Virus record (IMG/VR): IMGVR_UViG_2579778884_000012
Direction: 5' to 3' (one strand)
Source of the DNA: a virus
Lineage: Duplodnaviria > Heunggongvirae > Uroviricota > Caudoviricetes
Length of the DNA stretch: 38,749 nt
Below are positions 8,672 to 38,104 of the stretch, in pieces (the stretch's first letter is position 1; every line of letters starts with the position of its first letter). Under the pieces are notes generated by a model that was not told the DNA's origin, made no database searches, and saw nothing but the letters and a program-made list of their open reading frames with translations. A program made the translations under genes and the position numbers.

Positions 8672-9781
8672 TTAATCTGAGTCCATTTTCCCAAACTCTG
8701 TCAGGCCGAAAACGGAGCTACCAGAAACATGAGCTTGTAAGCCCGCTTCCTGCATGTCACTTAATTCAACTTCTTGGCTATCCTCTAATCCGATAGAGAA
8801 CATGGGATAGGCCCAGTTCCAATTCGGATCAGGAACCAAACTATTATTCTCTATCTTGAAAAAGCTGACCATGAGATGATGCCTTCCCTGTATCGCCTCT
8901 TCATCATTGATGTTGACCAGTACACCAAAGTGCTTGTAGCCGGCTTGTCCATTCTCGAACATTTTTATCTTGGTGCCGTTTCTGAACATCCAAAAAGAAT
9001 GATTTCCAGTGGAATCAGCGACCTGCAAGTTATCTTCGTCAATTTCCCAATTAAGATATTGTTTGATATCAGACTTTGGTTTGAGTTTTTCGTCATTACT
9101 AAACCATTGTATTGCCGGAAGTGGAAGGTGAAGACCTTCCGGCTGGGGAGGCTGACCTGCAGCAATGGAATGCATGATCTCTGTCATTGATGGAAGCCCC
9201 ATCAAATGCCATACATCATGGATATCCTTTTTAAGTATAAGAAGCCCTTTGGATACACCATCCGCGTAAGTTGACTTTAAGCGGACTAGTATGTCCTTGT
9301 TACCATCTTTGTCGAGGTCTTCAATGTTTACTGAAGAAGCCACAACCTCGTCGTCCCCTGCGTCTGGGATGATTGCCCAATACCCAATATCGTAGAATCC
9401 AGGTCTGCCAACCACCTTATCTATCAAACTCTGTCCAGAGGGCTCGAAGACCATCAGGAAACGGCTAAGGGCACCATTTGTGCTCACAGTTCTTCCGTAG
9501 ACTACAACGGAGTTTGAGGTGCTTAGATCGAGAGACTCGCTAGCCACTGAGTCAAACGCCACTGAGTCCAAATGTGTGGCAAGCTGCTGCTGGATGCACT
9601 CCCGAGCCATTTCAACTAATTTTTCGCGAACATCAGCAGATCGTATTGGCTGTGAAGTGAAATGGAAAAGCCCTACTGTAGCCGCTATGCCTATTATTCC
9701 CGAAATAACGGTACTTAGAACCTGCTCCTTTACCACTTTCACAACTTTCATCAATAGCTTCTTCAACTTCACTTCAGGCAC
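8672..9781 (-). CDS. Hypothetical membrane-anchored protein (accessory cargo at the Z/fun position), up to 369 aa
   Basis: Long AT-rich ORF between FI and G. One N-terminal hydrophobic helix (VLSTVISGIIGIAATVGLFHF) followed by about 320 aa of soluble domain with no motif I recognise. The track start is a GTG directly after an in-frame TAG; the first ATG is 10 codons in (9751), so the true start is uncertain. Confidence 0.6.
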   Translation of the reverse strand: MPEVKLKKLLMKVVKVVKEQVLSTVISGIIGIAATVGLFHFTSQPIRSADVREKLVEMARECIQQQLATHLDSVAFDSVASESLDLSTSNSVVVYGRTVSTNGALSRFLMVFEPSGQSLIDKVVGRPGFYDIGYWAIIPDAGDDEVVASSVNIEDLDKDGNKDILVRLKSTYADGVSKGLLILKKDIHDVWHLMGLPSMTEIMHSIAAGQPPQPEGLHLPLPAIQWFSNDEKLKPKSDIKQYLNWEIDEDNLQVADSTGNHSFWMFRNGTKIKMFENGQAGYKHFGVLVNINDEEAIQGRHHLMVSFFKIENNSLVPDPNWNWAYPMFSIGLEDSQEVELSDMQEAGLQAHVSGSSVFGLTEFGKMDSD

Positions 9782-9994
9782 CTAAATACTATTAAACTTG
9801 TCATGGGAAAATCCGATTATTATTGTAGAGAACAACAAAAACTGGCCTCGATTTTAGAGTTTTTCCAGTATCTATTTTCCGACTCGTTCGGCGGTAATCC
9901 ACCGTTATATTCATGAGGCCGGGGTGCACTATAATATTCAACTATATACTCTGTTTGTAGTGGCACATTAAATTTGGTGACAGATATGCATCAC

Positions 9995-15070: not shown

Positions 15071-15702
15071 AAAGGACTCCCGGTTGTGCCGCCGCTGTCG
15101 CCGGGGTGTTTATGGGTATGCAGTACCTTACCGTTTGATGAGAGTTCACCGCCGGTGTGTTCAATGTTGCCGCGCATCGTCCCGCCCTTCTGCACTTCCA
15201 GCGTGCCGGTGATCAGCTTGTTTGTGCAGACCACCTCCGGCGTGTCCAGAGTGATGCGGGTTGATGCTTTCACCATGACCACCGGCACCGTGGCAGTAAC
15301 AGAATCAGAAGCCGTCACGCTGGCCGTTTTAATTCCGCTTACCGTAAGCGCACTGGTTTCGGGTTCATACTCAATCACCGCCCCGTCAGGGAAACGGATA
15401 TGCAGGGCATCCGCCGACGCAGACGGCGCAGGGTTATCGCCGGAATAAATCCCCGGCAGAACGAACGCCGTGTCGAGTTCACCGCCCACGGCCAGAATCA
15501 GCACCTGTTCCCCCACGGAAGGTGCCCACCATGTGCGCGAACGTCCGGCGCGATGGGTCAGCCACTGAAGCCAGTCGGTGCACATGCCGCCGGTCTGCAC
15601 ACGGCAGCGACCGGCGTTAAGGTCGGTTTCAACGATAATGCCGGTACGAATCATGTTGCGCAGTGCGCGCGCGAGTTCCTGAATATTTGCGAGAGTGTCC
15701 AT
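15067..15702 (-). CDS. V: Baseplate spike protein gpV, 211 aa
   Basis: Starting at the internal Met (MDTLANIQELARALRNMIRTGIIVETD...) gives 211 aa, equal to P2 gpV. The track ORF carries a 6-codon extension. Confidence 0.85.
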   Translation of the reverse strand: MDTLANIQELARALRNMIRTGIIVETDLNAGRCRVQTGGMCTDWLQWLTHRAGRSRTWWAPSVGEQVLILAVGGELDTAFVLPGIYSGDNPAPSASADALHIRFPDGAVIEYEPETSALTVSGIKTASVTASDSVTATVPVVMVKASTRITLDTPEVVCTNKLITGTLEVQKGGTMRGNIEHTGGELSSNGKVLHTHKHPGDSGGTTGSPL

Positions 15703-15785
15703 GCATGTGAGATTGCACAATATATAAAAGTTATGCTATCTGGATTCATTTGTAGAACCACCAGACAACATTCAAGGAGAGCGTA

Positions 15786-16562
15786 ATGGTCAGCTATAAT
15801 GTGACTAATGTGTGGGAGCTAATCGTTTTGTATCTTTTGGTCTTTGCAGTATTAGCATTTTTTAGCTTTGGTAAAAGTAACCTTATGAGGCTTATTGCAC
15901 ATTATTTCAAATTTGGATATTCAGACAAAAAATTAAAAAGACTGGACCGCGAGTGGCGCGACATTCAACTATTTAAAATACTTAACGGAATCAATGTATC
16001 AGGCATCGAAGATGTGAGAATGATACAGCAGGGGCTGATTGATGGAAAACTAAAAACATCGGATTTTTTCCTTACTCGCTTCTGGGGAGACATAACAGAA
16101 CCGCCATGCATCACAAAAACAATGAGTGCAGTCCTGGCCGGAATTCTTTATATTATCTTCGCATGTTGCATACACAACGAGCAATCTGCCATAGTAGAGG
16201 ATGCCATAGCCATACCATATAAAAATATGATGTACCATGTTTATAATGACAAGGTTCTTTTGTTCTCCGACAATAAAACAGATAAGTTCTATAAAGCTTT
16301 TAGCATTGCCGATTGCAAGAGACTGCAGAACACTTTTGTAACAGACACACTTCCTGCAATCGCCTGCAATAAGCTCTTACAGCTAAACGAGGAGGACTCC
16401 GAATGGTTAAGTCAGGAGATTAAAGATAATAACAGCCACAGAAAAACATTATTAATAATATCCCTAATCTATTTCATTTCAGGTGCGTATTTTCATGAAA
16501 GGAGATCACTCAATAACTTCCATCGAGATCGGGTAATAACATTTGAACAGATCGCTGAATAA
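15786..16562 (+). CDS. Hypothetical integral membrane protein (accessory gene at the orf30 position), 258 aa as it stands
   Basis: AT-rich ORF on the strand opposite the late genes, with a good RBS (AAGGAGAGCGTA ATG). Three predicted hydrophobic helices (about residues 12-29, 114-130, 230-245). Its last seven codons and stop lie inside the inferred IS terminal repeat. Confidence 0.65.
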   Translation: MVSYNVTNVWELIVLYLLVFAVLAFFSFGKSNLMRLIAHYFKFGYSDKKLKRLDREWRDIQLFKILNGINVSGIEDVRMIQQGLIDGKLKTSDFFLTRFWGDITEPPCITKTMSAVLAGILYIIFACCIHNEQSAIVEDAIAIPYKNMMYHVYNDKVLLFSDNKTDKFYKAFSIADCKRLQNTFVTDTLPAIACNKLLQLNEEDSEWLSQEIKDNNSHRKTLLIISLIYFISGAYFHERRSLNNFHRDRVITFEQIAE

Positions 16563-16676
16563 CATCGATGGAGATCACTTTTGACTCATTTTGTTATTCA
16601 GTGATCTCCATCAATGTTATTGGAACTTCACAGGTGTGTTGATCTGTATCTTTTGCCATTCCGGTAAAGGATACCT

Positions 16677-18218
16677 ATGCCAACAGTTCCAATTTCTATG
16701 AGAAAACTTAAAGAAATTCTTAGGCTTAAATACGGTGTTGGACTCAGCCATCGACAAATTGGTCGTAGTCTTGCAATCTCCCCTTCCGTTGTATCCAGAT
16801 ATGCTAATCGGGCGGCTCAACTTGGCATAAAGCAGTGGCCCTTACCTACAGGATGGGATGATACAAAACTAAAACATGCGTTCCTTCAGACCCAGGTTAA
16901 GATGAAGAAGCACTCTCTGCCTGACTGGGCTACAGTACACCGGGAACTGCGTAATAAATGCGTGACGCTGCAGCTACTCTGGGAAGAATACTGTGAGCGT
17001 AATCCAGGCGGTTTTTACAGCTATAACCATTACTGCCGGATGTACCGTGAATGGCTCAAAACCACTTCACCATCAATGCGTCAGGTACATAAAGCTGGCG
17101 AAAAACTTTTCGTTGATTACTGTGGACCTACCGTTGGCGTTACCGACCCTGAGACCGGAGAAATAAGAACTGCTCAGGTCATCGTAGCTGTTCTCGGGGC
17201 ATCAAGTTACACATGGGCAGAGGCCACCTGGTCTCAGCAGCTTGAAGACTGGGTGATGAGTCATGTTCGCTGCTTCCAGTGGTTGGGTGGCGTTCCTGAA
17301 CTTGTTGTTCCGGACAATCTGAAAAGCGCCACATCCAGGGCATGTAAGTATGATCCTGACGTTAACCCTACCTACCAGCAGATGCTTGAGCATTATAATG
17401 TCGCAGTTTTGCCTGCGCGGCCACGTAAACCGAAAGATAAAGCCAAAGCTGAAGTTGGCGTTCAGGTTGTTGAACGCTGGATCATGGCCCGAATCAGGCA
17501 TGAGATCTTCTACAGCCTTGCATCGCTTAATCAGCGCATTCGGGAGTTGCTGGAAAGACTGAATAACAAAATAATGCAGAAGTTGGGTTATTCACGTGCA
17601 GAACTCTTCATCCAGCTTGATAAACCCGCACTGAAGCCTCTTCCTGAAGCCAGTTACAGTTACACCCTGGTGAAGAAAGTCAGAGTTCATGCCGATTACC
17701 ACGTGGAAATCGACAAACATTACTACTCGGTTCCATGTTCGCTGTTAGGCCAGCAACTGGAAGCATGGATCTCCGGAGAACTGGTAAGACTCTTCAATCA
17801 GGGGCAGGAGGTTGCTGTGCACCCGCGCAAGCGTACTTATGGCTACAGTACCCGCAACGAGCACATGCCTGAAGCTCATCGACAGCATGCCACCTGGACG
17901 CCAGAGCGTCTTCTGGAATGGGCGGGGCACATAGGCAGTGAAACTCATAGTTATGTGCTTCATATACTGAACTCTCGTCCACATCCGGAACAAAGCTATC
18001 GCTTCTGCCTTGGACTCCTGAACCTTCATAAAAAATACAGTAAAGCCAGACTTAATGCAGCATGTGCAAGAGCTCTGAAAACAAAGGTATGGCGTCTGTC
18101 AGGTATTAAATCGATCCTGGAAAAAGGTCTGGATAAACAACCTGTTCAGGATCCAAAACCAGATCTGTTATCCACGATGGAACACGAAAACGTACGCGGC
18201 AGTGAGTATTACCACTGA
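16677..18218 (+). CDS. istA: IS21-family transposase IstA, 513 aa
   Basis: N-terminal helix-turn-helix (LSHRQIGRSLAISPSVVSRY), central DDE-type integrase-like region, followed 12 bp later by istB; typical IS21 layout. Confidence 0.85.
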   Translation: MPTVPISMRKLKEILRLKYGVGLSHRQIGRSLAISPSVVSRYANRAAQLGIKQWPLPTGWDDTKLKHAFLQTQVKMKKHSLPDWATVHRELRNKCVTLQLLWEEYCERNPGGFYSYNHYCRMYREWLKTTSPSMRQVHKAGEKLFVDYCGPTVGVTDPETGEIRTAQVIVAVLGASSYTWAEATWSQQLEDWVMSHVRCFQWLGGVPELVVPDNLKSATSRACKYDPDVNPTYQQMLEHYNVAVLPARPRKPKDKAKAEVGVQVVERWIMARIRHEIFYSLASLNQRIRELLERLNNKIMQKLGYSRAELFIQLDKPALKPLPEASYSYTLVKKVRVHADYHVEIDKHYYSVPCSLLGQQLEAWISGELVRLFNQGQEVAVHPRKRTYGYSTRNEHMPEAHRQHATWTPERLLEWAGHIGSETHSYVLHILNSRPHPEQSYRFCLGLLNLHKKYSKARLNAACARALKTKVWRLSGIKSILEKGLDKQPVQDPKPDLLSTMEHENVRGSEYYH

Positions 18219-18229
18219 TACGGGATCCA

Positions 18230-18979
18230 ATGATGAATCATCTTTACGAACAACTGACCGCACTTAAACTCACCGGCTTCCGTGATGCGCTTAAAAAGCA
18301 ACTTGCTCAACCGGGCACATACCAGGAGCTGGGCTTCGAAGAACGCCTGTCATTACTGACAGCAGAAGAACTAACCTGCCGTGAAAACAGGAAGGCAGAG
18401 CGTCTGATCAAACATGCACGGTTCAGACTTAATGCTGAGTTATCAAAGCTGGATTATCGTAACAATAGAGGGCTGGACAGGGCCCTCATCCGTTCACTCA
18501 GTCAGGGAAACTGGTTAACCCTGAAACAAAATATTTTACTGACCGGGGCCACCGGCAGCGGTAAAACGTTCCTGGCATGTGCACTTGGTCATAATGCCTG
18601 CCGACAGGGATACAAGGTCTACTATTATCGCCTTAAAGCGCTGATGGAACAGTGCTATCAGGGGCATGCTGATGGAAGATACAGCAAACTTTTGACCAGG
18701 CTGAATAATAGCGATCTGCTGCTTCTGGATGACTGGGGGCTGGAACCTCTCTCATCAGAACAGCGTAGCGACCTGCTGGAAATAGTGGATCTGATGTACC
18801 AACGAGGCTCAATCATCGTAGTGAGCCAGTTGCCGGTGGAAAACTGGTACAAAATGATCGGAGACTCCACACATGCGGATGCCATCCTAGATCGACTGGT
18901 TCATGGCAGTATCAAGATCGAACTTAAAGGAGAATCAATGCGGAAAATACAATCTCCGTTGACCGAAGGAGATCAGTGA
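18230..18979 (+). CDS. istB: IS21-family ATP-binding helper protein IstB, 249 aa
   Basis: Walker A motif GATGSGKT and Walker B LLLLDDWG; DnaC-like AAA+ fold typical of IstB. Confidence 0.88.
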   Translation: MMNHLYEQLTALKLTGFRDALKKQLAQPGTYQELGFEERLSLLTAEELTCRENRKAERLIKHARFRLNAELSKLDYRNNRGLDRALIRSLSQGNWLTLKQNILLTGATGSGKTFLACALGHNACRQGYKVYYYRLKALMEQCYQGHADGRYSKLLTRLNNSDLLLLDDWGLEPLSSEQRSDLLEIVDLMYQRGSIIVVSQLPVENWYKMIGDSTHADAILDRLVHGSIKIELKGESMRKIQSPLTEGDQ

Positions 18980-19163
18980 AGGTAATTTAAAAACGGTTCT
19001 GTGAAAGTGACACGAACCGATCTCCATCGATGTTACTCACCGATCTCCTTCACGGTAATACGCATCAGGTCTATTTATATTCCTGTCATACACAAAATTC
19101 CTTTACGCCAATAAGAAGGTTTTAGAATACAAAGCATCAAATAAAAACCACTCATAAACCTCT

Positions 19164-19198
19164 AAACATTGAGCGACCAGCACGGCCGCTCAATGTTT
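19164..19198 (-). terminator. Terminator-like hairpin downstream of S (end of the O-S late operon)
   Basis: Twelve-bp inverted repeat AAACATTGAGCG-N11-CGCTCAATGTTT, 31 nt after the S stop, followed on the minus strand by a moderately T-rich stretch. Confidence 0.5.
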
Positions 19199-19228
19199 AA
19201 TTGCGCATCAGCCTCTGCCTGGATAAAA

Positions 19229-19681
19229 CTAACGCTCAAGGTGAGCCAGGATAATCTCTTCAATCATCTGCACATCCTCACCGGTAAAGCCGAGCAGAGG
19301 ACGCGCCGGATAATCAGTTTTCTTACCGTCTTTCCGGGTTTCTTCCGACAGACCGAACTGATGCACACTGGCAATTTTCGGCGACTTCCCGCCGTAAAAC
19401 TCCATTGATGCCTGTTCCGGGCTGGCGCGGATATGCAAAAAACGACTGGTGATAAGTTTCGCAAACATTTTTCGCTTAACACGACCGGTCTTTTTTCTGG
19501 CGCTCTGCTGCTGGCGTGGCACGTAGGGTGTGCCGTCCGGGGCTTTCTGTGCCATCACCCGACGCTGCTGACTCTGACGCAGACGTTTCGCCAGTTCGGC
19601 GCTCAGTCGCCGACGCCCTGACGGTGACAGCGATTCAGTCAGTCCGGTCAGCCGGTCTTCAAAACGCTTAAACTCATTCAT
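19229..19681 (-). CDS. S: Tail completion protein gpS, 150 aa
   Basis: 150 aa equals P2 gpS; follows R. Confidence 0.88.
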   Translation of the reverse strand: MNEFKRFEDRLTGLTESLSPSGRRRLSAELAKRLRQSQQRRVMAQKAPDGTPYVPRQQQSARKKTGRVKRKMFAKLITSRFLHIRASPEQASMEFYGGKSPKIASVHQFGLSEETRKDGKKTDYPARPLLGFTGEDVQMIEEIILAHLER

Positions 19682-28570: not shown

Positions 28571-28589
28571 GTGCTTTCCCCGCCTCGCC
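28571..28589. other. cos cohesive-end site (19 nt)
   Basis: GTGCTTTCCCCGCCTCGCC is the reverse complement of the P2 cohesive end as I recall it (GGCGAGGCGGGGAAAGCAC), about 160 bp after Q as expected. Confidence 0.75.
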
Positions 28590-28827: not shown

Positions 28828-29769
28828 ATGCAAGGTGAAGTTGACGAACAGCAACCAAATGAGATTATTTCGGAGTTTGGATACTATCCAGTAGAAGTTA
28901 ACATTGAGACTGAACAATTTTCTTTGCGTACTTTACCCGGTCTTATTGAGAACGTGGAACGTATTAACAATGATAAAAACGTTGTTAATGGTTGGATATA
29001 CCCTGGGAATCGAAAGGTATATAACCTTAATGGTGACACATGCACAATGCCTTATAGTTACCGAGTATTCGGCATGCCCAAAACGCACACACTAAAATTA
29101 AAAAACACATCCTCGTTAGAAACTCTCAACTTTGTTGTGTGGTGCCTCTCTTTTTTCAAGGGTATAAGATTGACAACCACTGACGCTGGTTTTCTTGATG
29201 CAACCACTATCAAGCCCACTAAGTTAACCGACTTTATTCTCGTTGGATGCTCTGAAAAAGAAGTAATAGAGCTAGCACTTAACTATATAAAAGACAAACA
29301 AAAAGATGATCGCTCCATTAAAAGAATAGCTGCGGTGATACACTCCCTATTCCTGTCACATAACCCACTATACCTTTCCTTTGAGAAATTCCAGTATCTT
29401 TATATGGCTCTTGATTGCTGTTTTGCTATAGCATGGGATGAAAGGGATAAAGTCATTAAAGAGAAAAAACCATCTCATCAAAATAGAGTATATTGGATGT
29501 GCGAAAATTACGGTGTAAAAATCCCGTCATGGGCAACAGATGAATGTAATGTTTCAGTTATACGCAATGATAATTTTCATGAAGCCATTTTTAATGGGCA
29601 ACCGCTTGGTTTCTCTAGTATCAATGATTGTCAATATGGTAGCGATATATTGCTACAAATGCAGGCTCTGGTATGTCGTCTACTAGCGGCAATACTCTCT
29701 GTAAATGATCGTAAATATATCGCATCTACAATCAGCTCGATAGAGTACCATTCATTAAAATTAACTTAA
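28828..29769 (+). CDS. Hypothetical protein with C-terminal HEPN-like R-x4-H motif (accessory cargo at the old/tin position), 313 aa
   Basis: AT-rich ORF with RBS GGAGAAAGTT ATG. Residues 246-251 are R-N-D-N-F-H (CGC AAT GAT AAT TTT CAT, 29563..29580), the HEPN-type motif, about 60 residues from the C-terminus. Not P2 Old or Tin by size or sequence. Confidence 0.6.
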   Translation: MQGEVDEQQPNEIISEFGYYPVEVNIETEQFSLRTLPGLIENVERINNDKNVVNGWIYPGNRKVYNLNGDTCTMPYSYRVFGMPKTHTLKLKNTSSLETLNFVVWCLSFFKGIRLTTTDAGFLDATTIKPTKLTDFILVGCSEKEVIELALNYIKDKQKDDRSIKRIAAVIHSLFLSHNPLYLSFEKFQYLYMALDCCFAIAWDERDKVIKEKKPSHQNRVYWMCENYGVKIPSWATDECNVSVIRNDNFHEAIFNGQPLGFSSINDCQYGSDILLQMQALVCRLLAAILSVNDRKYIASTISSIEYHSLKLT

Positions 29770-30088: not shown

Positions 30089-30769
30089 CTACATCTTTAT
30101 TGCATATTTATTAAAAGACGCCCAGTTCAATAAAAAAACATTATTCATATACCATTCAATATAATTTTTATTTTTAGATTGACTGTCAAGTAGCACACAA
30201 ACATCAACCTGTTTATCAATCAATTTTGCAATATAAACCACAAACTCAACACTCGAATATCTCTTTGTGCCTAGCAAATATAATATTTCATCTGACAAAT
30301 AATTAGACTCATGTGAAAAGACATTATCATTTAACAAAATCAACCCGCCAATCGAGTCATTTAAATCCAAAACATCCTTTGTTGCATTTATTTGCTTATT
30401 AGCTTCCTTAACTATCTTTGTTTTAATATTTTCATAAGCAAAGTTCATTATATCATTTCTAAATCGCTTTGAGTCTGGGTGTCTTTTTATCAACTCTTCT
30501 AAATGAATAGCACCATGCCAGTTTTTTGCAAGCCAACTATCAGTTTTAACCAACTCATTCAGTTTATCATTGACATTCTTGACCCTGTCAGAAAAAAGAC
30601 TTTTCATCTCCAAAATTATCTTTTTATTATCAATAAGATAATCTGCCATCTTGCGATTCTGACCATCCTTCATCCGGAACTTATGATGAATATCATCAAT
30701 AGAAATCCCTTTTTCATGCTCAACAATGAATCTCTTAACATTGTTTTCTAATTCGCTGTATTGTTTCAT
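30089..30769 (-). CDS. Hypothetical protein (accessory cargo), 226 aa, probably co-transcribed with the upstream DUF2158-like gene
   Basis: AT-rich Lys/Asn-rich ORF; start 27 bp after the small upstream gene's stop, with a GGGGGA RBS; no motif I recognise. Confidence 0.6.
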   Translation of the reverse strand: MKQYSELENNVKRFIVEHEKGISIDDIHHKFRMKDGQNRKMADYLIDNKKIILEMKSLFSDRVKNVNDKLNELVKTDSWLAKNWHGAIHLEELIKRHPDSKRFRNDIMNFAYENIKTKIVKEANKQINATKDVLDLNDSIGGLILLNDNVFSHESNYLSDEILYLLGTKRYSSVEFVVYIAKLIDKQVDVCVLLDSQSKNKNYIEWYMNNVFLLNWASFNKYAIKM

Positions 30770-31114: not shown

Positions 31115-33400
31115 TTACTCAAATTGATGCCAGAATCCCGACCACTCATCAGCGACCGGATACGTGAATTTTTTCCCGTCATAATTTACGGTCGCGCCAC
31201 GCGCCAGCGCCTCAAGCTCCCATCGCTGCGGCCTGATACCGTTCTGAGCAAGGTCAACGCGGATACGGGTGATTTGCAATCGTTCAGACCGGGTCAGTCT
31301 GGCCGATGGCGCTATTTCATGCGGTTTTAACGGGCTTCCGTTTCTTTGCTGACGGTTTGGTCTTCTCAGGCCGTGTTTTAATGCACCTCTGAGCGCCCTC
31401 ACGACCTCCGGGTCATTCCATTCGATAACACCGTCATCTACCAGATTAAGCACTGCTGCGGCGTGCTCAGAAGGTGTGGGAGCCGGTAACGAAGTATCAC
31501 CACCGGTGAGCTTTCCACAGTTATTGACAGGACTCCGAGGCGCGGCGATGCCGCTTTTTAAAGTCAAAGGCTCAACGACCGGCACTTTCGGAACAATGCG
31601 CCAGTCCGTCGTTCTGGTGATATGAATATGACGCGCGCCGAGATGCGGCGCGTAAATGCCGACCACTCTCTCGACTTCTTCCTCGTACTCGTTAACGTCA
31701 TCCGACGGGCTACGGGCGACCCTGACAGTCTGACAATCGCGCGGGACATTTGCCCCGCCCTGCGCGCTGATATACAACGCAAAATCACCACTGTCTGCAG
31801 CGGCGCGTGCAGCCTCGACGCGCTCGTCAAACTCATCAGCAATGCTGACGCCGCGAGGCAATTTGCGTAGTTCACGGTAAGCCCCCATTGTCGGCAGGCC
31901 AACCGTTTTAAATTGCGGAATGCGCCACGTTGACGCCCATGCGGTAACAGCCGCGGCAGTGTCTTTCAGCGGCCTGCCGGTATCGTTATCGAGCTGACCA
32001 TCCAGTGCATAGCCATCGATGTTTTTTGAGATGTATTTCGCGATATACCCTGCAGCACCGCCCCGGTTAAGGTGTTTTGCCTGAAAACGGTTTCGCGCAG
32101 CTCCTCTTTCGTCGCCATCCTCTTTGAGCGCGTAGCGACGCATGATTTCAATAATCTGGTTACGCTGGCGTGGATTACAAAAAAGCATCATATGCCAGTG
32201 CGGCGTTCCGTCGTGGTGTGGCTCGACGACTCGCAAACCGTAGACCTGTAAATCATTATCCTTGAATGCCGTGCGCATCAGGCTCCAGATACGGCAGAGA
32301 TAACGCTGCGCATCCTTTGGATTAAATGCCTCATCGTTCCAGCCGTGATTAAGCTGAACGGTTTTACTTTCGCCTTTTCCGACCTGACGTGTCGGGTGAT
32401 ACTTTGACGGCGCGGTCAGCGTGATAAACATCCCCACATCACCCTCTGCGGCGGCGTAACGCTCAATACCGGCAATGGTGTTCATCAGCTCCATCCGGCG
32501 AATTTCAGGATTAGAAATACTGCCCATCACCTTACTGATAAGGTCGATGCGTTCGCCGGTTTCCCTGTTTTCAAGGTCACACGATTTAAGAAACTCCAGA
32601 TTTGCCTGGCGGCGCGCACGCACATCACGAATGGCATGTTTACTGGCATAAGGAGAACGGTCTTTATTGACCTCCCCGACAGCAATCAGTAACGCCTCAT
32701 GCCAGCGCATACGCTGGCCTTTAAGCTGATGAGTCCACCACTCATCGTTAAACAGACGGGCAATGGCAGAATATGCCTGCCTCGTGGTTATCTGTCCTTT
32801 ACGGTATTTTTTCCAGTAGAGCGGGGAAATATTGAAAGCACGTGCAGCGCCAGCAACATGACCATACAGGTGAGTCTGCGCCTCATCCGTAAACAGCGAT
32901 TCTTTTTCGCCATGTGCATCAACCCATGCATCGCAGAGTTCCTCATACATCATGAAAAGCTGCGATGAGATACGGGCGGCAAACTTTTTCAGCTCCTTGT
33001 CATTCATTCCAGGCAGGCGCGCATAGTGGTCACGCTCTGCCAGAAATAGCAACGACGCGTCGGTGTTCATTTCATGGCGCTGATTCACGCGCTCAATGCG
33101 CGGCCATAAACGACGCTGAAAAGTAGATGTGAGGAAATAAAACCCGTGCACCGGGCTTTTATTGCGCCGGATGTAGTCATAGCGTGAAGTAAACAGCGAG
33201 CGCAAAAAGTAAGGCAGGCGGTTAATCGTGGATAAAACACCTTGCACCTGACGCATCTCGTCACGTGTAAGGGGTCTTTCGCGCCCGACGGCCTCGCGTG
33301 GCGCGTTCCATGCATAAGCACCGGTAAACGCCTTACCGGTGCCTGCAGCAAATGCTGACGGAGGTACGCAGGTGTATTGCTCCTGGAAAGAATGACTCAT
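31115..33400 (-). CDS. A: Replication initiation protein gpA (rolling-circle endonuclease), 761 aa
   Basis: 761 aa equals P2 gpA; position after the early small ORFs. Confidence 0.9.
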   Translation of the reverse strand: MSHSFQEQYTCVPPSAFAAGTGKAFTGAYAWNAPREAVGRERPLTRDEMRQVQGVLSTINRLPYFLRSLFTSRYDYIRRNKSPVHGFYFLTSTFQRRLWPRIERVNQRHEMNTDASLLFLAERDHYARLPGMNDKELKKFAARISSQLFMMYEELCDAWVDAHGEKESLFTDEAQTHLYGHVAGAARAFNISPLYWKKYRKGQITTRQAYSAIARLFNDEWWTHQLKGQRMRWHEALLIAVGEVNKDRSPYASKHAIRDVRARRQANLEFLKSCDLENRETGERIDLISKVMGSISNPEIRRMELMNTIAGIERYAAAEGDVGMFITLTAPSKYHPTRQVGKGESKTVQLNHGWNDEAFNPKDAQRYLCRIWSLMRTAFKDNDLQVYGLRVVEPHHDGTPHWHMMLFCNPRQRNQIIEIMRRYALKEDGDERGAARNRFQAKHLNRGGAAGYIAKYISKNIDGYALDGQLDNDTGRPLKDTAAAVTAWASTWRIPQFKTVGLPTMGAYRELRKLPRGVSIADEFDERVEAARAAADSGDFALYISAQGGANVPRDCQTVRVARSPSDDVNEYEEEVERVVGIYAPHLGARHIHITRTTDWRIVPKVPVVEPLTLKSGIAAPRSPVNNCGKLTGGDTSLPAPTPSEHAAAVLNLVDDGVIEWNDPEVVRALRGALKHGLRRPNRQQRNGSPLKPHEIAPSARLTRSERLQITRIRVDLAQNGIRPQRWELEALARGATVNYDGKKFTYPVADEWSGFWHQFE

Positions 33401-34398
33401 TCACATACACCGGCATAGACACTACTGCAAACTGACTTATCATTCACCGAAGCCAGCAAATCAAACTGTGCCCCGCCACGCGTGGTCATCGCCCAGTCAC
33501 GATAAGACTCAATTCCGTAAGCATCGACAGTAATAATATCAATGCGGCGTTCCGCACGACGCGGGTCATGAGTTGACGGGAAGAAAGTAGAATTTCCGCG
33601 TCTGGAGCATGCGGCGACAAGTCGCTCCCATTCCGCAACACGCTTAACCTCTTCCGGCCAGCGACTAAAAATTTCAGCTAATTCAGACTTTCTGGCGTGG
33701 ATGCAGGGCATACAACCGACACGACTGCATCCCTGCTGGTATAACGGATTAGGTTTAATTCCATGACGTCTTGCAAATGCAAATACCTCCTCATGCGTCC
33801 AGTTCAGAATAGGACGGTATACATGGAGCCCGGGCGTATTGTCCGCATCCTCTTCCCAGGCAGGCAGACCCGCGCGCGCAGGAGACTCCTGAGCGCGAAT
33901 CCCCTGCCAGCTAATTACCTCATCAAACTCATTAAGCGCAGGTAACACGACCTGAGTACGTACTGGCTCATGTTTAAGGTCAAAAGTGCAAAATCTGGCT
34001 TTAGTGGAAGGAAATCGCCCTTTCCACATGCACAAATCAAGAAATGGGATACCAGTAGGCTTGAGAATTTCCAGCGCACAATTGATGCGCTCTGCCGCTT
34101 CCCCCGGAGACATTCCGCACTCTTCAACCAGAGAAACAGGCCATTTCTCAGCAATAAACTTGCGCTTACCTTCAATCTGTCGGGAGAAGTCAGCTTTAAC
34201 CCGTTTAACCGGCCCGAGTCGGTTCTCCAGATAATCGAGATACTCCATTGTCTGCGGATGCTCATGCCCGGTGTCTGCAAAAACCGGCAAAAAAATGCAC
34301 ACCGCTTTCAATACCAACAAGCCATTGAGCAAGGCTATCCTTTCCGCCAGAAACAGAAATAATATTGATAGAGCTTTCAGCTCGGCAGCGGGTATCAA
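33397..34398 (-). CDS. PAPS reductase-like (adenine nucleotide alpha-hydrolase superfamily) protein, up to 333 aa
   Basis: Resembles the phosphoadenosine phosphosulfate reductase family often annotated in prophage early regions; N-terminal 40 residues hydrophobic; overlaps the A start by 4 nt (ATGA). Family assignment is by eye, from memory. Confidence 0.5.
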   Translation of the reverse strand: MIPAAELKALSILFLFLAERIALLNGLLVLKAVCIFLPVFADTGHEHPQTMEYLDYLENRLGPVKRVKADFSRQIEGKRKFIAEKWPVSLVEECGMSPGEAAERINCALEILKPTGIPFLDLCMWKGRFPSTKARFCTFDLKHEPVRTQVVLPALNEFDEVISWQGIRAQESPARAGLPAWEEDADNTPGLHVYRPILNWTHEEVFAFARRHGIKPNPLYQQGCSRVGCMPCIHARKSELAEIFSRWPEEVKRVAEWERLVAACSRRGNSTFFPSTHDPRRAERRIDIITVDAYGIESYRDWAMTTRGGAQFDLLASVNDKSVCSSVYAGVCE

Positions 34399-34401
34399 CT
34401 A

Positions 34402-34683
34402 TCATTTAGATTTCCCCGCACAGAGAAACGCAGTCAGACACTGCTGACCGAGCTGCTCAACCTGAGAGCTCAGCGCCTCAAAAGAGACAGCGTTACCGCT
34501 CAAAATATCGTGATGGATCAGACCGGAAACGAGCTGGTTTAATTTGGGGTAATAGCCGACAACATCCAGCCACTCTTTACCGGCATTCTTCCCGGTTTCA
34601 GCGGTCTTTCTCTCCTGCAAAATGAACTGAAAACGGTCATTTGTGACGACATAACGCTCGCCAATTTCAATACGAATACTCAT
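34402..34683 (-). CDS. Early-operon hypothetical protein, orf83-like position, 93 aa
   Basis: Small ORF in the cox-B-A early operon, overlapping its neighbours; call is by position only. Confidence 0.6.
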   Translation of the reverse strand: MSIRIEIGERYVVTNDRFQFILQERKTAETGKNAGKEWLDVVGYYPKLNQLVSGLIHHDILSGNAVSFEALSSQVEQLGQQCLTAFLCAGKSK

Positions 34684-38076: not shown

Positions 38077-38104
38077 AATCTCCCTTACACAGGCTTATTT
38101 TTTA
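38077..38104. repeat. Prophage attachment core, yegR-proximal copy (next to int), 28 bp
   Basis: AATCTCCCTTACACAGGCTTATTTTTTA; 27 of 28 identical to 1507..1534. Confidence 0.85.

Follow-up and report, generated by a model that had tools for sequence, protein, structure and literature searches.

The late region of a P2-like prophage in the virus record IMGVR_UViG_2579778884_000012 carries an istA/istB element between the V operon and gene S, which raises the questions of what this element is, where it begins and ends, and what it has done to the phage genome that received it. In a preliminary description of the window (the whole stretch of DNA analysed, 38,749 nucleotides) it was read as a complete IS21-family element, secondarily inserted in the prophage, with ends at 16544 (or 16539) and 19052. 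The family, the completeness and the secondary nature of the insertion are confirmed here; the ends are not. The segment 16484-19064 can be identified with very high confidence as a complete and intact copy of ISEc12 that transposed into the 3' end of a homologue of P2 orf30, within a P2-like prophage at the cyaR/yegQ-yegR site of an ST131-like Escherichia coli. ISEc12 itself is already known, and the insertion is an ordinary event of its kind.

The prophage is framed by two att cores:

1507-1533, no strand assigned: first att core, identical in all 27 bp to the attP core of P2; it overlaps the 3' end of cyaR
38077-38103, no strand assigned: second att core copy, with 1 mismatch, at the other prophage boundary and adjoining int

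Together with the P2 gene order, a P2 cos 19-mer at 28571-28589 and a C-type repressor (65% identical to P2 C), these cores place the prophage in the P2-like, Peduovirus-type group. P2 itself is not known to be SOS-inducible. The major capsid protein is 98-99% identical to those of Peduovirus records, and in the RefSeq annotation of the isogenic prophage the late and early genes of P2 are intact coding sequences. An Rfam scan of the window detected CyaR only, with nothing in the ISEc12 region.

The element and its immediate flanks are as follows:

16484-19064, plus strand: ISEc12 (IS21 family), complete, 2581 bp, termini TG...CA
16479-16483, no strand assigned: left copy of the target duplication TCAGG, which the window has twice and the empty sites L002, L003 and L005 once
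19065-19069, no strand assigned: right copy of TCAGG, completing a 5-bp direct repeat that flanks ISEc12

The copy is 100% identical over the full 2581 bp to RefSeq copies annotated 'IS21-like element ISEc12 family', and the name ISEc12 is taken from the RefSeq/PGAP gene naming of these identical copies. When the segment 16184-19364 of the window was used as query, ISEc12 copies from other genomic contexts aligned at query positions 301-2881, i.e. at 16484-19064 of the window, and among the independent copies aligned there was no full-length one starting after 16484 or ending before 19064. Two of the other copies (loci L001 and L003) are each exactly 2581 bp long, identical to the window copy and flanked by 5-bp duplications of their own, GGTGT and GCGGA; a published ISEc12 insertion in tssM likewise shows a 5-bp duplication (PMC10711316). 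When 16484-19069 is deleted, the remaining 36,163 bp match E. coli strain 4/0 with 0 mismatches; in that strain the same prophage occupies the yegQ-yegR interval and its orf30 site is empty. Since the independent copies and the empty-site comparison agree, the ends of ISEc12 are fixed at 16484 and 19064, the true termini being TGCGTATT... and ...AATACGCA. The left end thus lies 60 (or 55) bp and the right end 12 bp further out than was first proposed, and the 5-bp ambiguity noted for the left end is moot.

The ends of IS21-family elements are terminal inverted repeats (TIRs) made of multiple repeats (PMC10122671), and such an arrangement, with the termini 5'-TG...CA-3', is present here:

16484-16578, plus strand: left terminal inverted-repeat region, four direct repeats (L1-L4) in a 23-bp phase
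16484-16509, plus strand: L1, ending in (G/C)AGATC
16507-16532, plus strand: L2, with the same ending
16530-16555, plus strand: L3, with the same ending
16553-16578, plus strand: L4, with the same ending
16598-16623, minus strand: inverted repeat-unit copy, one mismatch to CATCGATGGAGATC, just inward of the left TIR, between it and istA
18951-18976, plus strand: inverted repeat-unit copy in the interior of the right end, overlapping the 3' end of istB
19016-19064, minus strand: right terminal inverted-repeat region, composed of R1 (19039-19064) and R2 (19016-19041)

In the left end the motif GAGATC or CAGATC recurs at 16502, 16525, 16548 and 16571, and in the right end GATCTC occurs at 19042 and 19019, again with a spacing of 23 bp. 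When the outermost 52 nt of the two ends are aligned with gaps allowed, L1/L2 come into register with R1/R2. The internally repeated units reported earlier are supported by the count of CATCGATGGAGATC (up to 3 mismatches allowed), which occurs 9 times in the window, compared with 3.1 +/- 1.9 times in shuffled sequences, with 0 shuffles reaching 9; 6 of these 9 matches fall within the two element ends. The inverted repeat of about 34 bp described previously is also real (16544-16577 against 19019-19052, about 30 of 34 positions with one gap), although it is subterminal and not terminal.

Between the ends lie two genes in the order istA-istB, as in the IS21 family, the first encoding a DDE transposase with an N-terminal HTH and the second an AAA+ ATPase:

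16677-18218, plus strand: istA, DDE transposase, 513 aa, intact
18233-18979, plus strand: istB, AAA+ helper ATPase, 248 aa, intact; the open reading frame opens at 18230 (ATGATG)

Both products score above the curated NCBIfam cut-offs. The IstA protein matches NF033546 (IS21 family transposase) with 310.5 bits at a cut-off of 160, contains the Pfam domains rve and Mu-transpos_C_2, and is related by sequence match to the solved IS5376 IstA structures 8b4h and 8q4d (E = 3e-13); the gene coordinates agree with those of RefSeq WP_001298859.1 in an identical copy. The IstB protein matches NF038214 with 270 bits (cut-off 200) and PF01695 (IstB_IS21) with 227.5 bits, shows the Walker A motif GATGSGKT and the Walker B motif LLLLDD in its translation, and is related, again by sequence match, to the solved IS5376 IstB structures 8q3w and 5bq5 (E = 2e-27). 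In identical ISEc12 copies the corresponding product is WP_001016257.1.

ISEc12 shares with IS21 and IS5376 (PMC10122671, PMC11208146) the order of istA (HTH, DDE and beta-barrel) and istB (AAA+), the ends of several units and the TG...CA termini. It differs from them in being distant at the protein level and longer, in the four phased repeats of its left end, where two per end are drawn for prototypical IS21 members, and in an extra inverted copy of the unit inside each end; the units are putative IstA sites. By analogy with the family (PMC10122671, PMC11208146), IstA would bind the repeated end units (L1-L4 and R1-R2) and synapse both ends, and IstB would capture and deform the target DNA and then recruit IstA. 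A strand transfer staggered by 5 bp, followed by repair, would yield the TCAGG duplication, the short flanking direct repeat characteristic of the family. Mobility, also a family feature, is seen in the occurrence of ISEc12 in unrelated contexts and in relatives with empty sites. The copy in the window would be expected to be transposition-competent, judging from its two intact reading frames, its complete ends and its identity to many other copies.

The gene that received the element is split into two parts:

15786-16483, plus strand: 5' part of the P2 orf30 homologue, codons 1-233
19070-19157, plus strand: 3' remnant of orf30, 88 nt, codons 234-261 plus stop

Joined together, the two parts encode a 261-aa protein that equals the intact WP_001599798.1 of strains S14 and 4/0, and this restored product is 81% identical to P2 Orf30 (AF063097) over 261 aa. 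The family phrog_2407, of unknown function, covers it at full length (positions 1-261 of 261, E = 2.6e-137); searches for Pfam, NCBIfam and PADLOC families found none. In the P2 record orf30 is flanked by S and V, which are encoded on the other strand, and the homologue in the window has the same position and orientation, so that both its full-length similarity and its locus assign it to the P2 Orf30 family. The earlier observation that the cargo gene is clipped therefore holds: of its 261 codons 233 precede ISEc12, the third predicted hydrophobic/membrane segment is lost, and the open reading frame 15786-16562 is a 258-aa chimera of the 5' part of orf30 and 25 residues encoded by the insertion sequence. 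Orf30 is probably inactivated as a result. Because orf30 is annotated as non-essential in the P2 record, its loss should not matter for lytic growth.

In P2 the orf30 gene is intact, whereas here it is interrupted; the neighbouring terminator and the region of the V promoter (pV) are shared by both phages and lie outside the element:

19163-19199, no strand assigned: hairpin corresponding to the P2 O-operon terminator tO (P2 9397-9433), between the convergent S and orf30
15744-15771, minus strand: site upstream of V that corresponds to the activator-binding site of pV in P2 (P2 10239-10266)

The terminator region is 96% and the pV activator region 97% identical to P2 over the aligned stretches, and the hairpin has a folding energy of -22 kcal/mol (z = -5.0). 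ISEc12 lies downstream of the O-operon terminator and is also upstream of the pV activator site, at a distance of about 710 bp. A consensus promoter scan gave 8 sites against 6.5 +/- 3.0 in shuffles, i.e. no enrichment, and flagged no outward-facing promoter at either end of ISEc12.

The site of insertion has been compared across genomes. The search for an empty site in related prophages, suggested at the outset, was successful: the orf30 site is uninterrupted in 463 of 5,426 complete E. coli genomes. ISEc12 is matched in 1909 of the 5,426 and occupies 5,553 places in 2,410 records, both chromosomes and plasmids, with a median of 3 places per ISEc12-positive genome. The left junction with orf30 was absent from the 5,426 complete E. 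coli genomes when searched with a 160-bp query, and absent as a 41-nt exact pattern from GTDB species representatives and JGI metagenome contigs. Two candidates for the same insertion were rejected: the only full-coverage junction match (H81) proved to be a two-piece match from a different ISEc12 insertion in gene S, and in the best flanked match (H21), of strain S14, the site lies in V. Because other strains have an identical prophage free of the element and none of the collections searched contains the junction, the insertion looks recent, and it is probably private to the source strain. The presence of the element had been taken as a sign of long prophage residence; the same two observations mean that it says little in this respect.

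Three other accounts of the locus can be weighed against the transposition of a complete ISEc12. That the element is bounded by terminal inverted repeats of about 34 bp at 16544 (or 16539) and 19052 draws on a good match between the arms 16544-16577 and 19019-19052, which over 28 nt agree at 93%. However, this match pairs L3/L4 with R1/R2, out of register with the true termini, and every full-length independent copy of ISEc12 reaches 16484 and 19064; if 16544-19052 were excised, 60 + 12 bp of foreign DNA would remain, which none of the empty sites contains, and no direct repeat flanks 16544/19052. These boundaries are refuted by the independent copies and the empty site, and are exceedingly improbable. 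A still smaller probability, close to nil, is given to the reading frames and repeats being phage backbone, for example a Mu-like transposase with a DnaC-like loader. In PHROGs IstA is indeed placed in a phage transposase family, and proteins like IstB come under 'DnaC-like helicase loader', but the site is uninterrupted in P2 and in the 463 E. coli genomes with orf30-bearing P2-like prophages, the identical 2581 bp are found in thousands of unrelated locations on chromosomes and plasmids, and a target duplication flanks the element; the independent copies, the empty site of strain 4/0 and the uninterrupted genomes refute a backbone origin. An assembly artefact, in which an ISEc12 copy was collapsed or misplaced into the prophage, is very improbable as well. 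Repeats present in several copies per genome are a classic source of mis-joins, and the orf30/ISEc12 junction was seen nowhere else in the collections searched; yet the insert is a precise element of 2581 bp, the DNA around it is otherwise identical, and 5 bp that occur once in the empty site are perfectly duplicated, which is the signature of real transposition.

Accepting transposition of ISEc12 into orf30, two consequences for the phage have to be considered. The preliminary description raised possible polar or promoter-out effects, and perturbed late gene expression, by polarity on the O or V operon or by an outward promoter of the element, has something in its favour: in IS21 a -35 box is located in the right end and a -10 box in the left (PMC10122671), and TTCACG can be read by eye in ISEc12 10 nt from the right end. 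In tandem ISEc12 copies a candidate junction promoter would be formed by TTCACG, 16-17 nt and TATTTT. The position of the single copy relative to the hairpin and the pV site, the close likeness of both regions to P2 and a promoter scan at the level of shuffles speak against it, and rightward transcripts leaving the element would reach only the 88-nt remnant of orf30 and then the hairpin. Polar effects are thus unlikely given the intact tO and pV regions and the absence of a detected outward promoter, and perturbation of late expression by either route has only a slight probability. Genome length deserves more weight. The excisable phage genome grows from 33,984 bp without ISEc12 to 36,570 bp with it, 7.6% longer than its own IS-free form and 8.9% longer than P2. 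The extra DNA may hinder cos-to-cos packaging and may exceed the room in the capsid. That 36,570 bp is too long for a P2-type T=7 head, so that ISEc12 grounds the prophage with no essential gene hit, is a tentative possibility at rather less than even chance. It gains from these excesses and from the lengths of complete phage genomes whose major capsid protein is >=95% identical (28.9-33.8 kb among the records listed), and loses from the more distant P2-family phages, which reach 37-40 kb, and from the plaque-forming lambdoid phages PhiR12_1, PhiR12_2 and PhiR12_4, which carry ISEc12, so that the element in a virion is no bar in itself. The literature searched gave no published packaging limit for P2, and the lengths of related phages serve as a rough guide.

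ISEc12 has entered the same or related P2-like prophages at other positions, namely in V (strains S14, E19 and 1442) and in S (VE-V10-F). Like the copy in orf30, these are identical elements that share its orientation and have a 5-bp duplication, and they lie within 1.4 kb and 2.9 kb of the orf30 site in prophage coordinates; they differ in hitting essential tail genes, whereas the insertion in the window hits the non-essential orf30. In general, ISEc12 elsewhere and here agree in sequence, istA/istB products and 5-bp duplication, and only the insertion site differs. The tssM::ISEc12 insertion of E. coli ST131 clade C/H30 (PMC10711316) involves the same element in a related host, where a simple insertion with 5-bp duplication inactivated the gene; it is, however, clonal, fixed in its lineage and located in a type VI secretion gene, whereas orf30::ISEc12 looks strain-private and lies in a non-essential phage gene of unknown function. 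The insertions in V, orf30 and S make three independent events within 4.4 kb, all in the same orientation, a number subject to ascertainment bias since the sites were found by queries that included the flanks. The shared orientation in 3 of 3 is not significant, and the three target pentamers have no motif in common. That the ST131 P2-like prophage is a recurrent target of ISEc12, and that the orf30 copy grounds it by making the genome too long, is accordingly regarded as unlikely; if true, recurrent targeting could mean that IstB prefers targets in this region or that disabling of the prophage is selected for.

The importance of the locus is slight and lies mainly in annotation: the boundaries of the insertion sequence are fixed, the open reading frame 15786-16562 is recognised as chimeric, and 19070-19157 as the orphaned 3' end of orf30. 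For the IS21 family, the lesson is that the inverted repeats with the best match can lie subterminally, and that ends should be set by empty sites or independent copies. For the phage, the source strain and strain 4/0 represent a natural orf30 knock-out with its isogenic wild type, usable to probe the role of Orf30, and the same pair, with and without ISEc12, could show whether a P2-type head tolerates a genome of 36.6 kb.

The P2-like prophage is interrupted by a named insertion sequence, ISEc12, in a simple insertion of the textbook kind; both the kind of event and the element are already known. The true ends lie at 16484, where the element starts with TGCGTATT, and at 19064, where it finishes with AATACGCA; the pentamer TCAGG directly abuts the element at either side. 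A preliminary description had set the ends at 16544 (or 16539) and 19052, which independent copies and the empty site show to be too far inward by 60 bp (or 55 bp) on the left and 12 bp on the right. Outside these coordinates, a repeat search found further complementarity in two inverted-repeat pairs, I1 (16499-16551 / 18998-19050) and I21 (16484-16499 / 19049-19064).

Three independent tests agree on the ends. Other copies were searched for with the element plus 300 bp of flank per side as a query, in which positions 301-2881 correspond to 16484-19064. In many unrelated settings on chromosomes and plasmids, full-length copies extended from query 297-301 to 2881-2893, mostly exactly 301-2881, and none in that search began later or ended earlier than 301-2881. 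The copies of strains S14 and VE-V10-F, located elsewhere in P2-like prophages, are exactly 2581 bp long, identical to the present copy, and flanked by 5-bp duplications of their own (GGTGT and GCGGA). The empty site proposed as a check in related prophages was found in E. coli strain 4/0 (NZ_CP023849.1, 2358927-2395089), which matches the window with zero mismatches over 36,163 bp once 16484-19069 (the IS and one TCAGG) is removed. A 5-bp duplication likewise flanks the ISEc12 insertion published for tssM of ST131 (PMC10711316).

Repeats of a roughly 23-bp unit make up the ends of the element; the unit finishes in (G/C)AGATC, and this hexamer is found as follows:

16502, 16525, 16548 and 16571: four left direct copies
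19042 and 19019: two right copies
16603 and 18969: inverted copies, one just within each end

The repeated unit noticed earlier, CATCGATGGAGATC, is real, with nine matches in the window at three or fewer mismatches against 3.1 +/- 1.9 in shuffles; six of the nine are located at the element's two ends. The reported inverted repeat of about 34 bp is a good match (about 30/34) but is not terminal. It pairs the third and fourth left units with the two right units (L3-L4 with R1-R2), out of register with the true termini, since L1 and R1, at the very termini, are the most diverged pair and the internal units L4 and R2 share an identical stretch of 14 nt. Multi-repeat ends are the family pattern of IS21 and IS5376 (PMC10122671).

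The description of an istA/istB element with repeat-rich ends stands, as the repeat unit is enriched and both ORFs pass the family models:

16677-18218, + strand: istA ORF (513 aa)
18230/18233-18979, + strand: istB ORF (249/248 aa)

The istA product has rve (integrase-core) and Mu-transposase C-terminal domains, and its 310.5 bits with the NCBIfam IS21-family transposase model lie above the cut-off of 160. The istB product exceeds the cut-off of 200 for the NCBIfam IS21 helper ATPase model with 270 bits, and scores 227.5 bits with Pfam IstB_IS21. The two proteins show sequence relationship to IstA and IstB of IS5376, whose structures have been solved. The name ISEc12 follows the RefSeq annotation of copies 100% identical to the 2581-bp element ("IS21-like element ISEc12 family transposase" and "...helper ATPase IstB"). 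All IS21-family features tested were found, namely the gene pair, multi-repeat TG...CA ends, a short target duplication, and mobility with empty sites. Of 5,426 complete E. coli genomes, 1,909 contain ISEc12 matches, on chromosomes as well as plasmids. In many ST131 genomes (search matches H1-H20, e.g. NZ_AP022525.1 4407780-4411078) the best match is split into two pieces over 3,299 bp with an additional annotated "helix-turn-helix domain-containing protein", which suggests a partial duplication or nested insertion. Four lambdoid phages with genomes of 52-54 kb, PhiR12_1, _2, _2_star and _4 (PV340549-PV340553; H141-H144), also carry an identical ISEc12, and their records name E. coli K-12 or E. 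coli C as the host; ISEc12 can therefore be transported in infectious virions.

The window is a P2-like prophage, with a P2 C-type repressor (65% identity). Its IS-free counterpart in strain 4/0, located between yegQ and yegR, carries the P2 genes by annotation, starting with ogr and D, continuing with those for tail, lysis and head, and ending with A, B, cox, C and int. Further features are:

1445-1530, + strand: CyaR/RyeE sRNA gene (Rfam 100.7 bits), 3' end within the left att core
1507-1533: 27-bp P2 attP core, exact
8672-9751 (- strand), 28828-29769 (+) and 30089-30769 (-): three cargo ORFs in classical P2 variable loci (Z/fun region, old/tin region)
9820-9954, - strand: IS3-family transposase gene fragment between G and FI, at the Z/fun cargo locus (as annotated by RefSeq for the identical strain 4/0 sequence)
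28571-28589: P2 cos 19-mer
about 33397-34405, - strand: accessory gene between A and an orf83-like gene, PAPS-reductase domain (Pfam 110 bits)
38077-38103: 27-bp P2 attP core, one mismatch

Since CyaR/RyeE ends inside the left att core, phage integration targets the cyaR 3' end and restores the gene. The IS3-family fragment is the scar of an older IS in this prophage. The three cargo ORFs had no Pfam or PADLOC match, and GC around 30089-30769 falls to 33%. The accessory gene shows weaker similarity to SspD, BrxP and DndC models and is frameshifted according to the annotation of the isogenic strain 4/0 prophage.

The IS had been taken as a sign of long prophage residence. The evidence points instead to a recent, strain-private insertion, given the zero-mismatch empty site and a left junction found nowhere among 5,426 complete E. 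coli genomes, GTDB species representatives and JGI metagenome contigs. Among the complete E. coli genomes, 463 have the site without an insertion, and in 27 of these the identity reaches at least 99%. In other strains the identical 2581-bp ISEc12 occupies, in the same orientation, two further sites in this P2-like prophage or a relative of it:

15105-15109 (comparison locus L001, 3001-5581): near the V 3' end in S14, E19 and 1442, duplication GGTGT
19427-19431 (comparison locus L003, 4443-7023): inside S in VE-V10-F, duplication GCGGA

V and S are essential tail genes; the apparent clustering of these sites is biased, because the queries contained flanks.

Polar or promoter-out effects, raised as a possibility before, are unlikely on sequence grounds, because both neighbouring control elements lie outside the IS:

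15744-15771: counterpart of the pV activator site (97% identity to P2 over the aligned stretch)
19163-19199: counterpart of the O-operon terminator hairpin (96% identity over the aligned stretch; -22 kcal/mol; z = -5.0)

The minus-strand O operon finishes short of the IS, and pV is about 710 bp past its other side. A promoter scan, equally part of this argument, found sites no commoner than in shuffles and none outward-facing at the IS ends.

The clearest physical consequence of the insertion is genome length, which from att core to att core is 36,570 bp with the IS and 33,984 bp without it, compared to 33,593 bp for P2. Packaging may be compromised, because this exceeds the 28.9-33.8 kb measured in a sample of complete phage genomes whose major capsid proteins share 95% identity or more with that of the prophage; no stated packaging limit for P2 was found in the literature searched. 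P2 itself is not known to be SOS-inducible, so with a C-type repressor induction of the lysogen may fail as a test.

The clipped cargo gene is a homologue of P2 orf30 (+ strand, start 15786, 81% protein identity), in the same place and orientation as in P2, between S and V. It is cut after codon 233, and the ORF now continues 25 codons into the IS to a stop at 16562. When 15786-16483 is joined to 19070-19157, the product is a 261-aa protein that matches the uninterrupted one of strains S14 and 4/0. Three hydrophobic segments are predicted in this full-length protein (4-33, 107-131, 219-243), of which the fusion retains two; loss of Orf30 function is likely. The homologue matches phrog_2407 (unknown function) end to end and had no Pfam, NCBIfam or PADLOC match; its G+C is low, at 36% compared with 51.5% across the prophage. 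In the P2 record, orf30 is annotated as non-essential. Orf30 is listed as unknown, and its locus is one of three with acquired genes in P2-like phages (PMC3091744). In decades, no function has been assigned to Orf30. With respect to orf30, the source strain is a natural mutant and strain 4/0 its wild-type counterpart.
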